Shown: positions 4,110-63,581, counted from the stretch's first letter. The stretch is 64,000 nt of DNA from Chloroflexota bacterium (GCA_023423795.1 JAFAEX010000098.1:14620-78619), one strand, 5' to 3'. Made by a program: numbers and translations. Notes: generated from the letters alone by a model not told the origin.

Positions 4110-7556
<3,447 letters not shown>

Positions 7557-7580
7557 CAACGAGACGGTCCTGAACGAAAA

Positions 7581-7614
7581 CGGCGGGCCGGGGAACTCCC
7601 CGGCCCGCCGTTTT
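7581..7614 (+). terminator. Rho-independent terminator after nrdJ
   Basis: Stem CGGCGGGCCGGGG (7581-7593), loop AACT, stem CCCCGGCCCGCCG (7598-7610), then TTTT (7611-7614). Confidence 0.7.
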
Positions 7615-7733
7615 CCCGTGGTCGGCCGTTCGGGTCATCGCGCCCAGCATCGGCAAACCGGCGGCAGCGAGCGGTCGGGTATCCTCGGAGCCCTAAGGAA
7701 CAATTCGGGGAGCGGGGACGGGGAGCGCCACAC

Positions 7734-8324
7734 ATGGGCAAGACGTACGAGGAGATCGACGACCGGCTGGCGCGCTGGATCGATCGACAACCGATGTTCT
7801 TCATCGCGACCGCGCCGCTCGCCGCCGACGGGCACGTGAACGTGTCGCCAAAGGGGATGCGAGGGACGTTCCGGGTGACGGGCCCGCGGTCGTTCGCCTA
7901 CCTCGACCTGGTGGGCAGCGGCGTGGAGACGATCGCCCATCTGCGCGAGAACGGCCGGATCACGGTGATGTTCTGCGCGTTCGAGGGACCGCCGAAGATC
8001 GTGCGGCTGCACGGCCGCGGCACGGTGTCCGAGCCGGGCGACGAAGGATACGAGACTCTCGTCGCCGAATTCGGGCAGTGCGGTGACGGGCCGATCGCGC
8101 GGCGGGCGGTGGTGTTGGTCGATGTCGAGCGGATTTCCGACTCCTGCGGCTACGGGGTGCCGCTCATGGAGTACACCGGGGATCGAGACCAGCACGAACG
8201 ATGGGTGGAGGCGAAGGCGGCGAAGGGCGGCAGCGGTTGGCAAGCCGACTACATCGGGGAGAAGAATGCCGCGAGCATTGACGGGCTGCCGGGCGTCGAT
8301 GCGTCACGCCATGCAGGATCGTGA
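7734..8324 (+). CDS. Pyridoxamine 5'-phosphate oxidase family (FMN/F420-binding split barrel) protein
   Basis: 196-aa ORF. The pattern MFFIATAPLAADGHVNVSPKG...ENGRITVMFCAFEGPPKIVRLHGRG is typical of PPOX-class proteins. Confidence 0.75.
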   Translation: MGKTYEEIDDRLARWIDRQPMFFIATAPLAADGHVNVSPKGMRGTFRVTGPRSFAYLDLVGSGVETIAHLRENGRITVMFCAFEGPPKIVRLHGRGTVSEPGDEGYETLVAEFGQCGDGPIARRAVVLVDVERISDSCGYGVPLMEYTGDRDQHERWVEAKAAKGGSGWQADYIGEKNAASIDGLPGVDASRHAGS

Positions 8325-8360
8325 CGGGCGCTCCGGCGGTCGGCACTTGGCGACGCGCCG

Positions 8361-9239
8361 TCATCCCGAGCCCGCCGTCAGGCCCTTGACGATGTAGCGC
8401 TCCAGGAAGATGCCGATGATCGCCAGCGGCAGGATCGCGGCGGTGGTCAGCGCGGCCATCGTCCACCACTTGATGCCTTGCGAGGAGACCTGGCCGGCGA
8501 TCAGGAACGGCAGCGTCACCGCGTTGGTCGAAGAGAGGACGAGGGCGATGAAGTACTCGTTCCAGCAAAGCACGACGGTGAGGATGTAGGCGGCGACGAG
8601 GCCGGGACCGGCGATGGGGAGAACGATCCGGCCGAAGGCGGCCCAGATCGACGCGCCGTCCACCTGCGCCGCCTGCTCCAGTTCCAGCGGGATGGAATTG
8701 AACTGGTCGCGCATGATCCAGATGACGATCGGCAGGTTCATGACGGTGTAGATCAGGATCAGTCCCGATCTGGTGTCCTTCAGGCCGAGATCGACGAACA
8801 TCAACAAAATGGGCATCGCGATCGCGGCTGGCGGCAAGATGAGTTGCGACAGGAAGAAGTTGGATATCTGCTGATTGTTCCATGGTCCGAAGCGATAGGG
8901 GAAGCGGGTCAGCCCGTAGGCTGCCAGCGCGCCGAGGACGGTGGCGCAGGCGGCGGCGACGGTGGAGACGACCAGCGTGTTCTGGAAGTGCTTGAGGAAC
9001 TGCGAGCGCTGGCCACGCTCGTAGAGCAGCGGCCGCCAGCCCATCTCGTCGGGTTGGAAATCGACGTACGGGACGTACTTGGGCCCTTGCAGGATGGCCT
9101 CGCGCGGCTTGATCGACGTCGTGACGGTCCAGTAAAGCGGAAAGATGCAGACGACGGCCCACATCAGCAGGCCGATGTAGACGAACACCTTCTTGAGCGA
9201 GCCGCCGGCATCGGGCCGGGCGGCGGCATGCGCAGACAT
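8361..9239 (-). CDS. Carbohydrate ABC transporter permease (MalG-like)
   Basis: This is the C-terminal part of the 1139-aa track ORF, trimmed to ATG 9239 (MSAHAAARP). It has multiple TM segments and the EAA loop LELEQAAQVDGASIWAAFGRIVLPIAGPG. Confidence 0.88.
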   Translation of the reverse strand: MSAHAAARPDAGGSLKKVFVYIGLLMWAVVCIFPLYWTVTTSIKPREAILQGPKYVPYVDFQPDEMGWRPLLYERGQRSQFLKHFQNTLVVSTVAAACATVLGALAAYGLTRFPYRFGPWNNQQISNFFLSQLILPPAAIAMPILLMFVDLGLKDTRSGLILIYTVMNLPIVIWIMRDQFNSIPLELEQAAQVDGASIWAAFGRIVLPIAGPGLVAAYILTVVLCWNEYFIALVLSSTNAVTLPFLIAGQVSSQGIKWWTMAALTTAAILPLAIIGIFLERYIVKGLTAGSG

Positions 9240-55235: not shown

Positions 55236-55260
55236 ATGCCAAGTATAGCGGGACGGAAGG

Positions 55261-55677
55261 TCAGGCGACCTCGATGGGCCGCTCCCGGATGGCGCCATCG
55301 ACGATCGAAAATCCCCGGATGACGGGCTGCTCCGGATCTTCGAGCGAGCAGATCAGGTAGCAGGCGTCCGGCCAAGCGGCGAGCGCCACGTCGGTCGCCG
55401 AGGGAAAGGCCACGCTGTGCGGGTGGGAGTGGTAGATCGCGACGATCTCCCAGTTCCGGCTGGGCAGCGTGCGGAACTCGAGTTCCATCAACTCGGCGGC
55501 GTCGGTTTCGTACAACTCGGTGCCCGGCGCGCGGTTCGTCAGCGGGAACGCCTCCTCGGCCGTGCCGTCCGGACCGGCGAGGACGCCGCAGCATTCCCGC
55601 GGCGCTTCGGCGCGGGCGTGGGCGACGATCGCTGACGCGAGGGTGCTGGAAAGCGCGAACGGCGGCGCGTCGCTCAC
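55261..55677 (-). CDS. mec: JAMM/MPN+ (Mov34) zinc metalloprotease, Mec+-like
   Basis: Trimmed to GTG 55677, which forms a GTGA overlap with the cysO stop. The JAMM motif is exact: E...HSHPHSVAFPSATD (HxHx7Sx2D). Confidence 0.85.
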   Translation of the reverse strand: MSDAPPFALSSTLASAIVAHARAEAPRECCGVLAGPDGTAEEAFPLTNRAPGTELYETDAAELMELEFRTLPSRNWEIVAIYHSHPHSVAFPSATDVALAAWPDACYLICSLEDPEQPVIRGFSIVDGAIRERPIEVA

Positions 55678-55970
55678 GCGCCGCCTCCGGCCATCGCCGG
55701 GATGATGCCGATCTCGTCGCCGGCCTTGACCGGGGTCGCGATACCGTCGGCATCGCGGACGTTGACGCCGTTGACGAAGACGTTGACGAAGCGGCGGATC
55801 TCGCCGCCATCGTCGCGGACCTGCGCGCCTAGGCCGGGGTGGGCCGCTTCGAGCGCGTCGAGCACCGCGCCGACGGTCGCGCCGGACGCGCCGATGCGGG
55901 CCGCGCCGCCGGTGAAGCGGCGCAGCGGGGTAGGGATCAACACCTGGACGTCGCTGGTTCCGTCGCTCAT
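55674..55970 (-). CDS. cysO: ThiS/MoaD-family sulfur carrier protein (CysO-like) ending GGGA
   Basis: Trimmed to ATG 55970. 98-aa protein with a beta-grasp pattern: VQVLIPTPLRRFTGG...VNVFVNG...VKAGDEIGIIPAMAGGGA*. Confidence 0.8.
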   Translation of the reverse strand: MSDGTSDVQVLIPTPLRRFTGGAARIGASGATVGAVLDALEAAHPGLGAQVRDDGGEIRRFVNVFVNGVNVRDADGIATPVKAGDEIGIIPAMAGGGA

Positions 55971-55992
55971 CGCGCAATCGCTCCCGATGCGT

Positions 55993-56988
55993 TCAGGACG
56001 ATGCCGGCGCTCCGGCATCCCACAATCCGGTCGAAAGGTACCGCGCCCCGCCGTCGCAGCCGATGACGACGATGTCGGCGGGTTCGCCGCGCGCGGCGAG
56101 ATCATGCCCGAGGCTGACGGCGGCCGCGAGGTTGGCGCCGGACGAACTGCCGACGAACAACCCCTCGACGCGGGCGAGGCGGCGGGCGGCGTCAAAGGCG
56201 TCCTCGGTCTCGATGCCGAGGATTTCGTCGGGCAGCGTGGGGTCCCAGATGCCGGGCACGATCGCGGTCGGCAGGTGCTTCAGACCCTCGATACCGTGGA
56301 AGGCGGAGGCCGGCTGCACGCCGATGATCCGCGCGCGGCTCCGTTCGCGCAGAAACCGGCCGACACCGGTGAGGGTGCCGGTCGTGCCGAGGGCGGCGAT
56401 GAAGTGGGTCAGGCTGCCGCCGGTTTGCCGCCAGATTTCCGGGCCGGTGGAGGAGACGTGGGCGGCGACGTTGGCCGGGTTGTTGTACTGGTCGGCGAAG
56501 AACGACCCGGTCGGATCGGCGGCGACCATCTCGCGCACGAGCCGGATCGCGCCGTCGGAGCCCTCGTAGGGGTCGCTGTAGATCACGTTCGCACCGTAGG
56601 CGACGAGGATGCGCTTGCGCTCCTCGGAGGCGGAGCCGGGAACGACGAGATTGACGGGTATGCCGAGGGCGGCGCCGAGCATGGCGTAGGCGATGCCGGT
56701 GTTGCCGGAGGTCGAATCGATCAGCGCCTGCCCCTGCCCGAGTTTCCCGGCGGCGATGGCGTGCCGCACGATGGAGAGGGCGGTGCGGTCCTTGATGGAA
56801 CCGCCGGGGTTGGCCCATTCGCCCTTGATCCGGATGCGGATGGTGTCGGGCAAGCCCGCAGCGGCGCGGAAGCGGGCGAGGTCGAGCAACGGGGTTTCGC
56901 CGATGGCGCGCACGGCGGCCACGTCGTCGAGCGACGGCAGCGGGACCGGACCGTGCTCAACATCCCGATGCTGGAGGGTGGCGGACAT
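55993..56988 (-). CDS. cysM: Cysteine synthase B-type PLP enzyme (CysM, CysO-thiocarboxylate dependent type by context)
   Basis: Trimmed to ATG 56988, with GAGGGAG upstream. Motifs: NPGGSIKDR (PLP Lys), STSGNTGIAYA and GTTGTLTGVGRFL. Confidence 0.85.
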   Translation of the reverse strand: MSATLQHRDVEHGPVPLPSLDDVAAVRAIGETPLLDLARFRAAAGLPDTIRIRIKGEWANPGGSIKDRTALSIVRHAIAAGKLGQGQALIDSTSGNTGIAYAMLGAALGIPVNLVVPGSASEERKRILVAYGANVIYSDPYEGSDGAIRLVREMVAADPTGSFFADQYNNPANVAAHVSSTGPEIWRQTGGSLTHFIAALGTTGTLTGVGRFLRERSRARIIGVQPASAFHGIEGLKHLPTAIVPGIWDPTLPDEILGIETEDAFDAARRLARVEGLFVGSSSGANLAAAVSLGHDLAARGEPADIVVIGCDGGARYLSTGLWDAGAPASS

Positions 56989-57042
56989 TGGATGCTCCCT
57001 CGCCGCGGCGCGAGGAACGCGCAGTTCCTCATCAAGAAATCC

Positions 57043-57071
57043 AGTATCAGGCGGCGCGGGAGAGGAGTCAA
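57043..57071 (-). promoter_or_regulatory. Putative promoter of cysM-cysO-mec (TTGACT-N17-GATACT)
   Basis: Minus-strand TTGACT at 57071-57066 and GATACT at 57048-57043, with exactly 17 nt spacing. The short leader contains hairpin GAGGAAC-TGCGC-GTTCCTC. Confidence 0.5.
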
Positions 57072-57089
57072 GCCGGGCGGTGGGAGAGG

Positions 57090-57848
57090 TCAGGTGACTC
57101 CCAAGCGCGGTCGGATGGGCGCGACGAACGATTCGGCGGCGTCGCATGCCGTGAGGAAGCGGATTCCACTCGGCATGCGCACGCCGAGGTCGAGGTCAGT
57201 TGCGCGCTGGACGACGGGGCGCTCCCACGGCCCCGGCTCGTCGTCGTGCGGGTCTTCGGCGAGCAGTGCCTGTGCGACCAGTTCGGCGGCGATGAAGTCG
57301 GGAGTCACGACGGCGATCCCCTGATTGCCGCTGCGCCCGGCGAGCAGCACGAGGTCGGGGCGCAGGGGAGCGACGAGTTCGGCGGTTGCGCCCGGGTCGC
57401 CGCCGAACCGCGCCGCGAGCCGCTGGCGTGGATGGGCGAACTGCGCTAGCAGCGACAGCGGCGTCAGCGAACCGCGATCGGTCGGCAATGAGAGCGCCAG
57501 CACGCGGCCGCGGTCGAGCAGGTGGGCGGGCACGCGGACGCGGTCGAAGCGTTGCGCTCCCGCCGGCACGGGCAGTTCGCGCCAGTTGACGTCGCCGGAA
57601 ACGAGGTCGCCGATTCCGCTTCGCGGCCGGGCGATAGGTGCTCGCTGGCCGGTCACGATCTGGGCGGCTTCGCGCAAGCCGCGCGGCGCGGGCGGCGGCG
57701 GCAGGAGCAGGATCGCCCCGTCAAGCGCCGGGATGCGGTCCCCGAGCAGCGCCAGTGCCGATTCGACGGCCGAGCGCGGATCGCCGGCACTCGCGACCGC
57801 GATGTGGGCGATCCCGCTTTCGCCTTCGCCGCCGCCATTCGTCGGCAC
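57090..57848 (-). CDS. Hypothetical protein, DUF362-like layout (weak)
   Basis: This is the tail of an 805-aa track ORF. GTG 57848 lies 7 nt after GAGGGAGG. Segments IAHIAVASAGDPRSAVESALALLG...ILLLP... and IAVVTPDFIAAELVAQALL resemble DUF362 by eye only. Confidence 0.5.
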   Translation of the reverse strand: MPTNGGGEGESGIAHIAVASAGDPRSAVESALALLGDRIPALDGAILLLPPPPAPRGLREAAQIVTGQRAPIARPRSGIGDLVSGDVNWRELPVPAGAQRFDRVRVPAHLLDRGRVLALSLPTDRGSLTPLSLLAQFAHPRQRLAARFGGDPGATAELVAPLRPDLVLLAGRSGNQGIAVVTPDFIAAELVAQALLAEDPHDDEPGPWERPVVQRATDLDLGVRMPSGIRFLTACDAAESFVAPIRPRLGVT

Positions 57849-58007
57849 GTCTTCGCCTCCCTCGGCTAAAAGATCGAGTGGGAAGGGTAGGATAGCCGCC
57901 GGTTCGCGATGATTGGCATCTGCGGCCGGTGACGAGATCAGCGGTATGGACTGTCCCGAGACGAACACGATGGCGAGAGCGGGCCGGGCATCGGCACGAC
58001 GGGCACG

Positions 58008-58898
58008 ATGATGACGCACTCCGGAGATGATGCGACGACCAATGTCGTCCGCCTTGCCGAGCCCGTATCGTTGCCGCTGACGTGCGCGCCGGTGGCGTGG
58101 GCGGCCGGCCGGTGGCCGTACGAGGAATGGCGCGACGGCCGATACTCGTGGGTCGGCTACGACGAGGGCAGGCTTGCCTGGCGGTCGGTCGGCCAGCACC
58201 CCGATGGGGTGGAGGTTAGGGGGACCGGGAATGCGGAAACCCATGCGCGGTGGGTGGCGCGGGTGTTCGCGCCGGCGCCGCTGGTGGATGCCTCCTCCGA
58301 TCCGGTGATAGCCGGCATCGCCGGGCGCGCGACAAGCATGGCGGCGCTCTGCAACGGATCGCTGTTCGACGGCGCGGTGATGTCGATCGTCGGGCAGTCG
58401 ATCTCCCTGGCATCCGCCGGGATCACCGCCGGGAGGCTGGCGGCGCTGTTCCACCCCGGCGTCGAACTCGCCGGACGCAGGATGTGGCCCCTGCCGAGTC
58501 CGGGCGACCTCGCCGATGCCGATGCAGCCTTCGTGCGCCGAAGCGGCGTCACCGGGAAGCGCGCCGAGGCCCTCGTGCGGCTTGGCCGGGCGTTTGCGGA
58601 AGGGGAGATCGCCGACCACCCCGGCGAGTGCGTCGGGGAGGCCGCGGCGGCGCTGCTTGCATTGCCGGGCATTGGTCCGTGGACGGTCGCCTCGGCGCTG
58701 CTCTGGGGCCTTGGCGAGCCGGATGCCTATCCGGCCGGGGATGCGGCGCTGCTTCGGGCAGCCCGGCGCGCCTACGGAAACCCGGAGATGGATCACGCGG
58801 CGCTGAACCGGTTGGCCGACGGCTGGCGTCCGGCGCGCGCGGTGGCGGCGCGGTTGCTGTGGCTCGACCTGTTCGGACCTGCGCCCGACGAGGGGTAG
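58008..58898 (+). CDS. HhH-GPD superfamily DNA glycosylase (AlkA / 3-methyladenine glycosylase II-like)
   Basis: Motifs: SIVGQSISLASAGITAGRL...LLALPGIGPWTVASALLWGLGEPDAYPAGDAAL (HhH followed by catalytic Asp). Confidence 0.78.
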   Translation: MMTHSGDDATTNVVRLAEPVSLPLTCAPVAWAAGRWPYEEWRDGRYSWVGYDEGRLAWRSVGQHPDGVEVRGTGNAETHARWVARVFAPAPLVDASSDPVIAGIAGRATSMAALCNGSLFDGAVMSIVGQSISLASAGITAGRLAALFHPGVELAGRRMWPLPSPGDLADADAAFVRRSGVTGKRAEALVRLGRAFAEGEIADHPGECVGEAAAALLALPGIGPWTVASALLWGLGEPDAYPAGDAALLRAARRAYGNPEMDHAALNRLADGWRPARAVAARLLWLDLFGPAPDEG

Positions 58899-58901
58899 AG
58901 G

Positions 58902-59591
58902 ATGGCGGCAAGAGCGGCGGCGTGGGAAGCGAACCCGGCCTACCCGGCGCGGGAGGCCATTGCGCTGGCAGCCGAGGCGGTGGGCGACAAACCGAAGGCG
59001 GCGATGTTCGACCTCGCCGACCGGGGGTACCGGTCGGTGTTCCAGCAACTGGTCTCCTGCGTCATCTCGATCCGGACGCGCGACGAGGAGTCGCTGCCGA
59101 TCAGCATCCGCTTGTTCGATGCTGCGCCGTCGCCGGAGGCGGTCGCGGCGCTCGGCGAAGATGCGATTGCCGCGCTGATTGCGCCATCCACCTACGCCGA
59201 GCAGAAAGCGCCGCGCATCCGCGAGATCGCGCGGCGCACGGTGAACGAATTCGGCGGCGAACTGCCGTGCGATCCGGCGGTGCTGCAGGGATTTGCCGGC
59301 GTCGGGCCGAAGTGCGCGAACCTCGCGGCGGGCGTGGCCTGCGGCACACCGGTGGTGTCGGTTGACGTCCATGTCCACCGGGTGACCAATCGCTGGGGTC
59401 TCGTGCGAACGAACACGCCGGAGCGCACCGGCGAGGCGCTGGCGAGCGTGCTGCCGGACGACCTGAAGGTGGAGATCAACCGGGTGCTCGTGCCGTTCGG
59501 CAAGCACGTCTGCACGGGAGCGCGGCCGTGGTGTTCGCGCTGCCCGGTGCGGCCGATCTGCGCCCGCGTCGGGATAACGGATTCGCGCTGA
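58902..59591 (+). CDS. nth: Endonuclease III family DNA glycosylase/AP lyase
   Basis: Motifs: LVSCVISIRTRDE...GFAGVGPKCANLAAGV...VDVHVHRV and the Fe-S cluster C..(6)..C..C..(5)..C (CTGARPWCSRCPVRPIC). Confidence 0.85.
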   Translation: MAARAAAWEANPAYPAREAIALAAEAVGDKPKAAMFDLADRGYRSVFQQLVSCVISIRTRDEESLPISIRLFDAAPSPEAVAALGEDAIAALIAPSTYAEQKAPRIREIARRTVNEFGGELPCDPAVLQGFAGVGPKCANLAAGVACGTPVVSVDVHVHRVTNRWGLVRTNTPERTGEALASVLPDDLKVEINRVLVPFGKHVCTGARPWCSRCPVRPICARVGITDSR

Positions 59592-59613
59592 TTCCGGCGC
59601 GGGAACGGTGGAT

Positions 59614-59829
59614 CTATGGCTCGAACCCGCGCACGACGCCCTGGAGCAACTGGCCGGATTCGGCCATGACGAAGCGGAGGCTGTCGAGGTAGACGAGGAC
59701 CTCCATCAGCTCGGCCCCGTCGAGATGTTCGACCGCTTCCGCGAGGTCGCAACATTCGCGCAGGGCGGCCACGAGGTTGGTCCGCGCCTGTCCGCCGCGC
59801 GCGGCTATGGCGTCGTAGTCGTCGGTCAT
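59614..59829 (-). CDS. Hypothetical 71-aa helical protein, translationally coupled to the amidase
   Basis: ATG 59829 overlaps the amidase TGA (ATGA). Sequence MTDDYDAIAARGGQARTNLVAALRECCDLAEAVEHLDGAELMEVLVYLDSLRFVMAESGQLLQGVVRGFEP. I recognise no family. Confidence 0.6.
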   Translation of the reverse strand: MTDDYDAIAARGGQARTNLVAALRECCDLAEAVEHLDGAELMEVLVYLDSLRFVMAESGQLLQGVVRGFEP

Positions 59830-61241
59830 CGCACTGGCGCTCCTTCCAGAACGGTTGGCAGCCGCGTGATCCATCCGGCGGCTGCTTCGTAGCACGCGCC
59901 AAGCTCGAACAACCGGTCCTCGTTGCCGGGCCGGCCGGCGAGCTGGAGGCCGATTGGCAGCCCGTCCCGGTCGAAGCCGCAAAGGACGGCGAGGACCGGT
60001 TGCCCGGTGGCGTTGAAGGGCATCGTGAGGCGGGTGAAGCCGACGCCGGCGCCTTCGGAGGTGCCGTCGAGATGACGGATCAGCGGGTCGTCGGCGGGGA
60101 CTGCGCCGGCGGGCAAGGTGGGCGCCAGCATCGCGTCGAGGCGGTGCGCGGCGAAGTGGCGGGCGACGGAATCGCGGGCCACCAGGCGAGCCCGCCGGGC
60201 GGCGTCGATCGCGGTAGCCGGGACGAGCCGGCCGGCGGCGGCGCGCACCTGCAAGTCCGGATTGAGCAGCGCGAGGCGTTCGGGATCGCCGGCAACCAGC
60301 GGCCAGACCGCATCCCCGGTTTCGGCCCGGTTGATGATGTAACCGGCCGCCCGCGCCGAAGCCGCGCCGTCCCAATCGGCATCGACGATCTCCGCGCCGA
60401 GGTCCGAGAACAGGCGGGCAGCCGCCTCGAGCGCGGCCGCGACGTCGGGATGCAGCCGGTCGAAGAAGTGGGCCTGCGGGAAACCGATCCGGGTTCCCCG
60501 GCACGCGCTGTCGTTCCTGGACCGCTGGGATGCAGCCGCGTGGTTCCCGCGCATGGCGGCCCAGCCGATCCGGGCGTCCTCGACGGTCCGGGCGAGCGGG
60601 CCGATCGTGTCGAGCGACGGCGACAGCGGGTGGACGCCCGCGACAGGCAGCGCGCCGAAGGCGGGTTTGAACCCGGCCACGCCGACGGCGGCCGCCGGGA
60701 TGCGGACGCTGCCGCCGGTGTCGGAGCCGAGCGCGAGCAGACCCGCGCCGACGGCCACGGCGACCGCCGAACCGCCGGAGCTGCCGCCCGGCACGCGGGA
60801 AGGGTCCCACGGGTTGCGCGCCGGCGGGCTGAGGACCCCGGCCGCGAACTCCTGGGTGACGGTCTTGCCGAGCACGACGGCGCCGGCGTCCCGCAGACGC
60901 TGCACGACCGGGGCGTCTTCCGTCGCGGGCGGCGCGTCGGCGAGGAGCGCGGAGCCGCAGCGGGTGGGAAGCCCGGCCACGTCGATGATGTCCTTGACGG
61001 CGACCGGGATGCCGTGCAGCGGCCCGCGATCGACGCCGCGCGCGAGATCGTCGGCGGCGGCGCGGGCGGCCGCCATCGCCCGCTCGGCATCGACGGCGAC
61101 CCAGGCGTGGAGGACGGGCTCGGTTGCCTCGATCTGGGCGAGGGCGGCGGCGACGACCTCACTCGGCCGGAGATCGCCGGACCGGTAAGCCGCGGCCGCG
61201 CTCGCGATGGTCAGGCTGGGAAGCGCGACAGCCTCGGTCAC
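59826..61241 (-). CDS. Amidase-signature family amidase (GatA/AtzE-like)
   Basis: Amidase signature GGSSGGSAVAVAVGAGLLALGSDTGGSVRIPAA, plus catalytic Lys context GIPVAVKD. Confidence 0.88.
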   Translation of the reverse strand: MTEAVALPSLTIASAAAAYRSGDLRPSEVVAAALAQIEATEPVLHAWVAVDAERAMAAARAAADDLARGVDRGPLHGIPVAVKDIIDVAGLPTRCGSALLADAPPATEDAPVVQRLRDAGAVVLGKTVTQEFAAGVLSPPARNPWDPSRVPGGSSGGSAVAVAVGAGLLALGSDTGGSVRIPAAAVGVAGFKPAFGALPVAGVHPLSPSLDTIGPLARTVEDARIGWAAMRGNHAAASQRSRNDSACRGTRIGFPQAHFFDRLHPDVAAALEAAARLFSDLGAEIVDADWDGAASARAAGYIINRAETGDAVWPLVAGDPERLALLNPDLQVRAAAGRLVPATAIDAARRARLVARDSVARHFAAHRLDAMLAPTLPAGAVPADDPLIRHLDGTSEGAGVGFTRLTMPFNATGQPVLAVLCGFDRDGLPIGLQLAGRPGNEDRLFELGACYEAAAGWITRLPTVLEGAPVR

Positions 61242-61453
61242 GACGGGCCTCCCTGCCGAGATCCTTCGTCCGGCCAGGCGGGATCGAACGGAGCGTCCGT
61301 ATCCGGGTCCGGCGGCGGGACGATGCCGAGCATGGCGACGGCTTGCGCGATGTCGCCGAAGTACGCCGCGACGGCAGGGTCGGCGAACAGGGTGGGATCG
61401 ACCCCGGCGGACGCGGCGAGGGCGACGACGGCGGGGGAGGGCTGGCCGGTCAT
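61238..61453 (-). CDS. Small 71-aa protein, AtzG/DUF4089-like (GatC-like amidase partner) by position and pattern
   Basis: ATG 61453 overlaps the M42 stop (ATGA), and its own stop overlaps the amidase start. Sequence MTGQPSPAVVALAASAGVDPTLFADPAVAAYFGDIAQAVAMLGIVPPPDPDTDAPFDPAW... The resemblance to AtzG is judged from memory of the family pattern. Confidence 0.55.
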   Translation of the reverse strand: MTGQPSPAVVALAASAGVDPTLFADPAVAAYFGDIAQAVAMLGIVPPPDPDTDAPFDPAWPDEGSRQGGPS

Positions 61454-62559
61454 GACGGCCGCTCCGGTTCCGGAGTGGTCGCGAACTCGACGAGGAGGTC
61501 GATGGTCGCTTCCACGTCGTTGAGGTCGATCGTTTCGACCGGGGTGTGGGTGTAGCGCGTCGGGTAGGTCAGCAGCGCGGCTTCCACGCCCCGCCGGATC
61601 AGCGACGCGCCATCGCTGCCGTAGAACTGGTAAACGGCGCGCTGGACGGGAACCGAGGCGCGGCCGCCCGCGGCGAGCAGTTCGTCGCACAGCCCGCGGG
61701 AGTAGTGGCAACTCGCGTCCTGGTAGACCACGGTCGGGCCTGCGCCGAGGGCGGCCGGGAAATCGCGCTTGTCCGGGCCGGGGTGGTCGCCGGTGAGGCC
61801 GACATCGAGTGCGATGGCACGGTCGAACCGGACTTCGTCGGCCAGGCTGGATGCGCCGATCAGGCCGTTTTCCTCCTGCACGGTGGAGGCGATCCAAAGT
61901 TCGTAGGCGAGGTTCGCGCCCTGCAACCGCTCGGCGGCGCAGGTGGCGATGGCCAGCGCGGCGCGGTCGTCCATCGCCTTGCCGACGGCGTTGCGCCCGA
62001 TGCGGCGGGTGGGGGAGTTCCAGATCACGCGCGCGCCCGGCCCGATGCCCATCGCCTCTACGTCGGCGCGGGAGCGCGCGCCGACATCCACGAACCAGTC
62101 GTTCCAGTCGGCCCGGTCCTTTTCACGCAGCGAACCGCCGGTGACGTGGCCGGAGGCGACCGCGAAGACCCCTTCGACCGTGCCGGTGGACGTGACGACG
62201 AGGGCGGGTTGATAGAGCGGCATGAACCACTTGGGCGGTTTGCCGTCGGGGTTGCCGGCGTAGTACCAGAGGTGGAGGAAGCCGTCGTCGGTCACGCTCT
62301 TGACGACGAGGCAGAGTTCGTCGGCGTGGCCGAAGAGCAGCAACTTCGGCCCTTCGCCGCCGACGCGGGCGAGGACGTTGCCAACGCGCGTGCGCCGGAC
62401 TTCGGGGAAGCGCGACCAGCGGTCGGCGAGCCAGTCCTGCACGGCGTCCTCGTGCCCGACCGGGCCGGGCAGGCCACACAGCGTTTCGATCAACCCGTAG
62501 AGATCCTCGGACGTTCCGGCCACGGTGCGTCGTTCCTCCGCGCGCGATTCGGCATGCAT
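61450..62559 (-). CDS. M42 family metallopeptidase (glutamyl aminopeptidase / FrvX-like)
   Basis: Motifs: LCGLPGPVGHEDAV...LLLFGHADELCLVVKSV...GKAMDDRAA...VQEENGLIGA. Confidence 0.85.
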   Translation of the reverse strand: MHAESRAEERRTVAGTSEDLYGLIETLCGLPGPVGHEDAVQDWLADRWSRFPEVRRTRVGNVLARVGGEGPKLLLFGHADELCLVVKSVTDDGFLHLWYYAGNPDGKPPKWFMPLYQPALVVTSTGTVEGVFAVASGHVTGGSLREKDRADWNDWFVDVGARSRADVEAMGIGPGARVIWNSPTRRIGRNAVGKAMDDRAALAIATCAAERLQGANLAYELWIASTVQEENGLIGASSLADEVRFDRAIALDVGLTGDHPGPDKRDFPAALGAGPTVVYQDASCHYSRGLCDELLAAGGRASVPVQRAVYQFYGSDGASLIRRGVEAALLTYPTRYTHTPVETIDLNDVEATIDLLVEFATTPEPERPS

Positions 62560-62753
62560 GGTGCGCGAGGATACGGGCGGGTGGGCCGGGCTGTAAACGA
62601 TGCCTTGCTCGTAGCGTGACCGGGAAACGGCCCCAGCGCCCTTCCTGAGCCGAAAATGCGGGGTTCGCTCCTTGGATCGATCTGCAATTTGCGGTGTATT
62701 GTCCGCAATGCCGGGATTGAACGGGTCGCGTCCGGTGCGTTCGAGGGGGGATC

Positions 62754-63581
62754 ATGCAGCGTTCGGGATTGAGGAACGTGTGCTCCGCGGTGGCGCTCGC
62801 CGCGTCAGTCGTCGTGGCTGGACTGGCGTCCGCAACGAACAGCGAGGCTCAGGCCGCCCACTGGCAGCCGACCAAGGGTCTCACGTGGGAGATCCAGATC
62901 AGTTCCACACCCAAGCGGATCAAGCCGGTGCAGGCCTACGACGTGGACCTGTTCGAGACGCCGCAGGCCAAGTTGAACGAGATCGAAGGACGCGGCATCA
63001 AGACGATCTGCTACTTCAGCGCCGGGTCCTACGAGCAGTGGCGGAGCGACGCGAAGCAACTCGCGCCGTATCGCGGCGCCAAGTTGAAGGGCTGGCCGGG
63101 CGAGTGGTGGATCGACATTCGGAAGCCTGAAGTCCGCGCGGTGATGGAAGCGCGACTCGATCTCGCGGCGCAGAAGGGCTGCGACGCGGTCGATCCGGAC
63201 AACGTCGATGGGTACCAGAACAAGAACGGCCTCGGGCTAACGGCCGCCCACCAGGCCGATTACCTCAAGTTCCTCGCCGAAGAAGCGCATGAGCGCGGGA
63301 TGGCGATCGGGCTGAAGAACTCGGTGGAACTCATTCCGCAGGTCGTCAACGACTTCGACTTCACCGTCAACGAGGAGTGCTTCGACTACCGCGAGTGCGG
63401 CACGCTCAAGCCGTTCATCGACGCCAACAAGCCGGTCCTCCAGATCCAGTACGGCGACAAGGCGAAGGACCGAAAGAAGGCAGCGAAAAAGTTCTGCAAG
63501 CAGGCCAACAACCTCGGGTTCTCGACCCTGATCAAGGGCTGGGACCTCGACGCGAAGGGCATCGACTGCACGAAGCGGTAG
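62754..63581 (+). CDS. Secreted glycoside hydrolase family 114 (endo-alpha-1,4-polygalactosaminidase-like)
   Basis: Signal peptide MQRSGLRNVCSAVALAASVVVAGLASA. Motifs: ICYFSAGSYEQWRSD...GWPGEWWIDIR...GCDAVDPDNVDGY...GLKNS...FDFTVNEECFDYREC. Confidence 0.82.
   Translation: MQRSGLRNVCSAVALAASVVVAGLASATNSEAQAAHWQPTKGLTWEIQISSTPKRIKPVQAYDVDLFETPQAKLNEIEGRGIKTICYFSAGSYEQWRSDAKQLAPYRGAKLKGWPGEWWIDIRKPEVRAVMEARLDLAAQKGCDAVDPDNVDGYQNKNGLGLTAAHQADYLKFLAEEAHERGMAIGLKNSVELIPQVVNDFDFTVNEECFDYRECGTLKPFIDANKPVLQIQYGDKAKDRKKAAKKFCKQANNLGFSTLIKGWDLDAKGIDCTKR

Follow-up and report, generated by a model that had tools for sequence, protein, structure and literature searches.

Operon layout

In this study, we examined a four-gene operon on the minus strand of a 64,000-nucleotide stretch of DNA from a Chloroflexota bacterium (GCA_023423795.1 JAFAEX010000098.1:14620-78619), a stretch that we refer to in its full length as the window. 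In order of transcription, the genes encode an M42 peptidase (61450-62559; 369 residues, ATG start), a 71-residue protein that we call small1 (61238-61453; ATG start), an amidase (59826-61241; 471 residues, GTG start) and a second 71-residue protein, small2 (59614-59829; ATG start). A first-pass annotation of the window, made from its sequence alone, had located the four co-directional reading frames at exactly these coordinates and had read them as a candidate heteromeric amidase or peptidase module with stoichiometric co-translation. We demonstrate that small1 and the amidase form a conserved pair and that both the M42 gene and small2 can be separated from this pair, and profile searches point to a remote similarity of the small1 family to GatC and AtzG. 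By analogy with known enzymes, the core of the operon is probably a two-subunit hydrolytic amidase.

Consecutive genes overlap by 4 nucleotides. The stop codon of the M42 gene overlaps the start of small1 (61450-61453, ATGA), that of small1 overlaps the start of the amidase (61238-61241, GTGA) and that of the amidase overlaps the start of small2 (59826-59829, ATGA), such that the ATGA motif previously ascribed to all three junctions is present at the first and last only. These overlaps imply translational coupling, and they exceed chance, since the same overlaps recur across related loci. All four open reading frames (ORFs) have coding-type composition in their own frame, with a third-position G+C (GC3) of 0.85-0.89 and the lowest G+C at the second position (GC2), in a window that is 70% G+C overall. 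Shine-Dalgarno-like sequences, GGAAGGAG and GGGAGG, occur 5' of small2 and the amidase.

The region from 59300 to 62900 (3.6 kb) contains one sigma-70-like promoter match, compared to 0.0 expected in shuffled sequence, and this is a match to the consensus alone. The site, TTTACA-18-TATCCT, lies at 62568-62597 on the minus strand, with its -10 element ending 9 nucleotides 5' of the M42 ATG; the M42 cistron may be leaderless, or have a very short leader. A lone promoter-like site just 5' of M42 fits one transcript. The operon is self-contained, since the flanking genes on both sides are on the plus strand; these are two HhH-GPD glycosylases downstream (58008-59591) and a GH114 hydrolase upstream (62754-63581). 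By ORF calls and Pfam searches of the flanking genes, GatB is encoded neither within the operon nor on either side of it, and the flanking genes of the window include neither atzD nor atzF.

The amidase and small1

The amidase matches the Pfam Amidase family (PF01425) at 6.6e-96, scoring 322.5 bits against a cut-off of 27. Its Ser-cisSer-Lys motifs are complete, comprising K83 (KD), GGSSGGS at residues 152-158 and GSDTGGSVR at residues 172-180, and all three are invariant in 27 orthologues. The best NCBIfam model is the AtzE family NF006631 (295.9 bits; cut-off 461), while the second AtzE model, TIGR02715, gives 288.8 bits (cut-off 425.75) and nearly equal scores are obtained with the indoleacetamide hydrolase model (293.5) and the generic amidase model PRK06169 (292.4). 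The GatA model TIGR00132 is matched in two stretches at 224.2 bits, below its cut-off of 481.1. In the PDB, 2dc0 (2e-56), the AtzE chain 6c62_A (3.5e-55 over its full length) and GatA chains (~1e-49) are about equally good matches. Judged by these scores, the protein is an unclassified amidase-signature enzyme, apparently neither an AtzE orthologue nor GatA. The likeness to AtzE that had been drawn for it does not extend to the family level (296 compared to 461 bits), and the earlier view that the operon does not encode a tRNA amidotransferase is borne out both by the missing GatB and by the score below the GatA cut-off. Amidases from related loci share 48-64% identity with the one in the window. 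One Thermomicrobiales metagenome-assembled genome (MAG) has the gene order M42, second amidase paralogue, small1, amidase, small2 (L035:1782-6180); this paralogue, of 461 residues, has no small ORF before it, and the arrangement is a tandem amidase duplication within the operon.

Among the ~30 related loci where the N-terminus of the amidase is available, nearly all contain an ORF of 60-80 codons that ends in a 4-nucleotide overlap with the amidase start. The position is conserved and the sequence evolves fast: small1 is mostly undetectable by tblastn across related loci, the window protein has only four close homologues, and the family combines a very variable N-terminus with the C-terminal motif lDL.gvePa..FDP.WPe. 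We built a hidden Markov model (HMM) from 31 positional equivalents, leaving out the window protein and three close relatives. Window small1 scores 36.7 bits on this model, compared to a maximum of 8.0 for 1000 shuffles, and its membership in the family is not circular because neither it nor its close relatives contributed to the model.

When the small1 family profile was searched against 177,635 PDB sequences, GatC of S. aureus ranked first (2df4_C, E=4.3e-4), GatC of Aquifex fourth (3h0l_C, E=0.0029) and GatC of T. maritima sixth (3al0_C, E=0.03), with designed helical proteins occupying the ranks between them. All three GatC chains align in register with the profile, over GatC residues 2-54. 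This is supported by hhalign, which gives a probability of 86% for the small1 family and the GatC N-terminus, compared to 0.1% for reversed GatC and 0.6% for the small2 family, the latter value ruling out small1 and small2 as paralogues. Pfam AtzG-like (PF13318, formerly DUF4089) is the top match in ~11 of 29 small1 equivalents, at E-values from 5e-4 to 0.13, and GatC and GatF turn up as Pfam matches in two others; the Pfam GatC model PF02686 does not match window small1. A word-indexed search with the small1 profile recovered only Thermomicrobiales-type proteins without a Pfam domain and no bridge to annotated AtzG-like proteins, and a literature search on DUF4089 returned nothing relevant. 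In the AlphaFold2 model, which has a predicted local distance difference test (pLDDT) score of 73, three helices at the N-terminus lead into an extended tail. The family profile points to small1 as a probable fast-evolving, divergent GatC/AtzG-type small subunit of the amidase, and the claim that the upstream small protein is AtzG/GatC-like is supported at the level of the family, in which GatC chains are the best biological PDB matches, and not for the window protein by itself.

The pairing of a small1-like ORF with an amidase also extends beyond Chloroflexota. On a plasmid of Streptomyces sp. KN37, a 74-residue "hypothetical protein" (L069:3278-3502) matches the small1 family at 87% (hhalign) and overlaps the amidase start by 4 nucleotides; an overlap of this length is also present between the amidase and a 69-residue "hypothetical protein" without a Pfam match on a plasmid of Azospirillum argentinense (L071:3280-3489); the adjoining amidases are 39-45% identical to the window amidase. 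In Rhodococcus pyridinivorans, an ORF on plasmid NZ_CP086071.1 (L070:3149-3499), which is not listed in the partial gene table of PLSDB, stops 2 nucleotides short of the amidase gene in a nitrile hydratase (nthBA) cluster. Over the last 61 residues, its product matches both the small1 family (93%, hhalign) and Pfam AtzG-like (E=0.0011), and nitrile hydratase-linked amidases may therefore have an overlooked small subunit. A small1-like ORF also ends at the amidase start in 10 of 71 amidase-selected metagenomic homologues (34-56% identity). The small1-amidase pairs of other phyla occur without small2.

Separable neighbours: M42 and small2

The M42 protein covers the full Pfam Peptidase_M42 profile (PF05343, positions 1-292) at 2.5e-63, with 214.3 bits against a cut-off of 23.2. 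It carries the motifs GHADE 77, DDR 197, QEE 228, LDVG 251 and HTP 338, which we take to be consistent with metal ligands, an assignment that draws on general knowledge of M42 enzymes and not on a structural alignment. No NCBIfam equivalog cut-off was reached for glutamyl aminopeptidase, lysyl aminopeptidase or the NAGGN-system M42 protein. Identity to the window copy is 55-75% across related loci. Of 33 informative related loci, 19 have the M42 gene directly 5' of small1 and one has it nearby; it is absent from 13, and the gene that lies upstream of the small1-amidase-small2 trio at these is often divergent or unrelated. At loci that have the gene, its overlap with small1 usually recurs. The M42 aminopeptidase is therefore an accessory, optional upstream neighbour of the small1-amidase pair.

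Using small2, we recovered 61 species-level genomes, all of them Thermomicrobiales, Sphaerobacteraceae or Chloroflexia MAGs. Within this small2-selected set, the amidase lies directly 5' of small2 in 38 of 54 informative genomes, with a 4-nucleotide overlap at 15 of the 38 junctions, and small2 occurs without an amidase or M42 gene nearby in the other 16, several of which have it after aspartate kinase and asd genes. Conservation of the small proteins with the amidase, for which the first-pass annotation had proposed a neighbourhood survey, thus holds for small1 in ~30 loci and for small2 in part (38 genomes with, 16 without). Adjacency of small2 and the amidase is specific to the Thermomicrobiales-type lineage, and each also occurs apart from the other, as the lone small2 genes in 16 of 54 genomes and the small2-free pairs in other phyla show. 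In view of these lone genes and of the absence of M42 from 13 of 33 loci, a four-protein stoichiometric module is not supported.

Several other features of these neighbourhoods were observed. In other lone-small2 genomes, a minus-strand gene for an M81 (MlrC-like) metallopeptidase converges on small2 (L051:6189-7724, L055:6272-7756 and L066:6304-7800, identified with Pfam, and probably L054:4981-6588, judging by its shared N-terminal sequence). Perhaps by coincidence, small2 has peptidase genes as neighbours in two settings that are unrelated to each other. In one subgroup (L082-L086, ~5000-9200), Ldh_2 and HpcH/HpaI genes come after the trio. At L082-L084, it faces a divergent peptide-type ATP-binding cassette transporter (SBP_bac_5 plus Dpp/Opp-like permeases) and an alpha/beta-hydrolase, with an M42 gene beyond these at L083 and L084. 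This setting is a weak hint that peptide-like or amino-acid amides are catabolised.

small2 is a free-standing 71-residue protein with no membrane segment. It is 65-89% identical to the window copy across related loci and has 696 homologues, of which the 120 listed are all at least 75% identical and lack a Pfam domain; an alignment of 30 sequences contains 31 invariant columns. Sequence searches of Pfam, NCBIfam and the PDB with small2 gave no match, and its profile gave a single insignificant match in the PDB (E=0.4). The AlphaFold2 model is a two-helix hairpin (residues 2-35 and 38-68; pLDDT 89.8), for which Foldseek returned generic helical hairpins only, none at E<=0.001. Without a Pfam match and with a predicted all-alpha hairpin, small2 is not AtzH-like, which agrees with the first-pass annotation.

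An exhaustive search of 1.84 billion representatives with the small2 profile returned only 39 clusters, seven of which are cytochrome b C-termini (P0209, P0195, P0197, P0199, P0202, P0219 and P0223), with a small2-like helical hairpin as C-terminal tail. In P0209 (564 residues; L073:2267-3961), Cytochrom_B_N_2 (1.6e-45), Cytochrome_B and Cytochrom_B_C are followed by a Pro/Ala-rich linker and a small2-like domain at residues 495-552, which matches the small2 profile at E=2.7e-12 in the search of 1.84 billion proteins. By tblastn, this tail matches the window at 48% identity over 77 residues (E=2.4e-10), and it matches every small2 locus at 42-65% identity. The gene order at L073 is NDH-2, a 145-residue ORF, Rieske protein and cytochrome b. 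A cytochrome b fusion in the small2 loci of GTDB genomes was ruled out by upstream in-frame stop codons in 7 of 7 loci checked. Distant free-standing members of 63-73 residues are encoded directly 5' of parA-parB in two independent groups of metagenomic contigs (L074:1095-1316, L075:3628-3849, L076, L079:1370-1561 and L080). A literature search on a C-terminal extension of cytochrome b in Chloroflexi found nothing relevant.

The wider neighbours of the operon in the window include PALP and UvrC genes, beside the DNA glycosylases and GH114. A minus-strand ORF of 805 codons (57090-59507) overlaps the plus-strand HhH-GPD glycosylase genes and was taken as a GC artefact; its last ~280 codons (57090-57950, minus strand), without a Pfam match, may be a genuine gene. 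At ~55260-57147 on the minus strand, a short ORF with a glycine-rich C-terminus (…AMAGGGA) and no Pfam match at E<=0.001 comes after a PALP (CysM-like) gene. Related loci have PALP-ThiS-JAB at the equivalent position, which resembles a CysO/CysM/Mec-type sulfur-carrier cysteine pathway.

A candidate two-subunit amidase and its known relatives

We propose, with a probability of roughly 60%, that the core of this operon is a two-subunit hydrolytic amidase in the style of GatCA and AtzEG, accompanied by optional neighbours, and that small2 is most likely no dedicated subunit of it. In this model, which is drawn by analogy, the four cistrons of a Thermomicrobiales (Chloroflexota) bacterium would be expressed from a single promoter. 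small1, whose production would be translationally coupled through the overlap of its stop codon with the amidase start, would enfold the amidase-signature enzyme and keep it stable, in the manner of GatC and AtzG. The amidase would release ammonia from an amide substrate, a hydrolytic role that we infer because the operon has no GatB partner. M42, together with the Dpp/Opp transporters and alpha/beta-hydrolases near the operon in relatives, would contribute to scavenging of peptide-like or amino-acid amides, and small2 would be co-transcribed in this lineage, its relatives probably serving as the tail, on the cytoplasmic side, of a cytochrome b that is linked to a Rieske protein. A physical complex of small1 with the amidase is likely given that AtzG, although non-catalytic, is required for the solubility of AtzE, and that GatCA has been proposed as the ancestor of AtzEG (PMC6219798).

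Several results weigh against this proposal. Window small1 alone has no match in Pfam (none at E<=1), NCBIfam or the PDB, such that the HMM searches suggested earlier for both small proteins (PF13318/DUF4089 and GatC) found nothing for the window proteins themselves and, for relatives of small1, AtzG-like matches of 13-20.8 bits, none of which reaches the gathering score of 24 bits. The AtzG chain of 6c62 was recovered neither by the small1 profile nor when the PDB was searched with P0125, the relative that most resembles AtzG, and Foldseek returned zero matches to the small1 model. Moreover, small2 lies downstream in 5 of 5 small1-found loci with usable gene calls and in both close amidase-selected orthologues, and the small1-amidase-small2 trio is kept together while its flanks change, often with a 4-nucleotide overlap at the junction.

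This persistence of the trio, the position of small2 in the amidase-selected orthologues, the three consecutive overlaps and the recurrence of the amidase/small2 overlap in 15 of 38 loci would all be expected if small1, the amidase and small2, with or without M42, were one stoichiometric heteromeric machine, in which small2 is a new third subunit at the AtzH position. We nevertheless consider this unlikely, as 16 of 54 genomes carry small2 with no amidase nearby, the pairs of other phyla lack it, 13 of 33 loci have no M42 gene, and the homologues of small2 are cytochrome b tails or neighbours of parAB. Furthermore, that small2 is 65-89% identical across related loci and the amidase only 48-64% suggests that small2 is constrained by some other partner, one that evolves more slowly. 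We would give long odds to the idea that small2 is a detached C-terminal domain of cytochrome b, in most Thermomicrobiales coupled in translation to a GatCA-like amidase, which either docks as a separate subunit on a Rieske/cytochrome b complex or tethers small1-amidase (and M42) to it. If the tether were true, respiration would be physically linked to the scavenging of amide or peptide nitrogen, for which we know of no described precedent.

Less probable again is a pathway enzyme of AtzEG(H) type that acts on 1-carboxybiuret, allophanate-like compounds or other ureides. In its favour, a gene of the Ldh_2 family, which includes ureidoglycolate dehydrogenase, follows the trio in some relatives. 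Further, the best NCBIfam match of the amidase is the AtzE family (296 bits), AtzE 6c62_A aligns over its full length (3.5e-55) and the order small, amidase, small resembles atzG-atzE-atzH, with ggt-atzG-atzE-atzH clusters of Enterobacteriaceae likewise beginning with a peptidase-like gene (PMC6219798). However, both AtzE models score well under their cut-offs and no better than the indoleacetamide hydrolase and generic amidase models, an AtzH/NTF2 protein is replaced by the all-alpha hairpin of small2, and the flanks contain no atzD or atzF. We regard as very improbable a paralogous GatC-GatA pair that carries out tRNA-dependent transamidation with a GatB encoded elsewhere. GatC chains are indeed the best PDB matches of the small1 profile, and GatA chains match the amidase at ~1e-49, yet the GatA equivalog is matched in two pieces at 224 of the required 481 bits, small1, with 71 residues, aligns with GatC residues 3-53 only and offers nothing that corresponds to the remaining C-terminal half of the ~95-100-residue GatC, GatB is absent from the operon and flanks, and the amidase evolves fast (48-64% identity within one order). 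Lastly, spurious ORFs are common in high-GC DNA and neither 71-residue ORF has a Pfam match, as would be the case if one or both were chance open frames. This reading is effectively refuted by coding-type GC3 in the correct frame, by the 696 homologues and 31 invariant columns of small2, by the 36.7 bits of small1 on the non-circular HMM compared to 8.0 for shuffles, and by independent assemblies in which both ORFs are called as genes.

Should the two-subunit amidase hold, a GatC/AtzG-type clamp subunit would partner amidases beyond Proteobacteria, in Chloroflexota and Actinomycetota (Streptomyces, Rhodococcus), as well as in Alphaproteobacteria (Azospirillum). Current gene tables would then have overlooked a widespread GatC-like partner of amidases, as would the Pfam model, the latter because the partner evolves so fast. 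If expressed on their own, the amidases of this group may prove insoluble, just as AtzE does when AtzG is missing, which matters for nitrile and amide biocatalysis and for enzyme discovery. small2, for its part, is tightly conserved, lineage-restricted and unannotated, and its fusion to cytochrome b elsewhere provides a testable hypothesis on its partner.

Among described systems, the tail of Rieske-associated cytochrome b in uncultured bacteria is the relative of small2, which is 42-65% identical to the last ~55 residues of that protein; in contrast, window small2 is co-transcribed with an amidase and not with respiratory genes. The M42 protein resembles M42 aminopeptidases of the TET/PepA/FrvX type in its full-length Pfam match and metal-ligand-like motifs. 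To our knowledge, no case of an M42 gene translationally coupled to a GatC-like ORF and an amidase has been described, with the proviso that our literature searches were not aimed at M42 operons.

The operon lies outside the AtzE, AtzG-like (at the Pfam threshold), GatA, GatC and AtzH families and is AtzEG-like in architecture only. As in AtzG-AtzE, the 1-carboxybiuret hydrolase, a ~70-residue protein is encoded directly 5' of an amidase-signature enzyme and there is no GatB; like the atzG-atzE-atzH clusters of Proteobacteria, the operon has another small gene downstream of the amidase, and some of those clusters have a peptidase-type gene upstream (PMC6219798). The small1 family is remotely similar to AtzG/GatC, and AtzE is among the best matches of the window amidase. 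Unlike AtzG-AtzE, the window amidase falls under both AtzE cut-offs, and small1 and its relatives fall under the Pfam AtzG-like threshold. AtzH has an NTF2 fold (DUF3225), whereas small2 is predicted to be an all-alpha hairpin, and the upstream enzyme is an M42 aminopeptidase rather than the GGT of ggt-atzG-atzE-atzH. AtzEG clusters are found in Proteobacteria, whereas the window operon has a Chloroflexota host and no cyanuric-acid or ureide genes nearby.

The operon differs from GatCAB in lacking GatB, in a GatA equivalog score that is under half of the cut-off, in a small1 without a counterpart of the C-terminal half of GatC, and in the rapid divergence of its small1-amidase pair inside a single order, which would not be expected of a housekeeping enzyme of translation. 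It nevertheless shares with GatC-GatA the placement of the small subunit gene first, an amidase that is homologous to GatA and carries its catalytic motifs, and a small1 profile that can be aligned in register with the first ~50 residues of the GatC proteins of three species.

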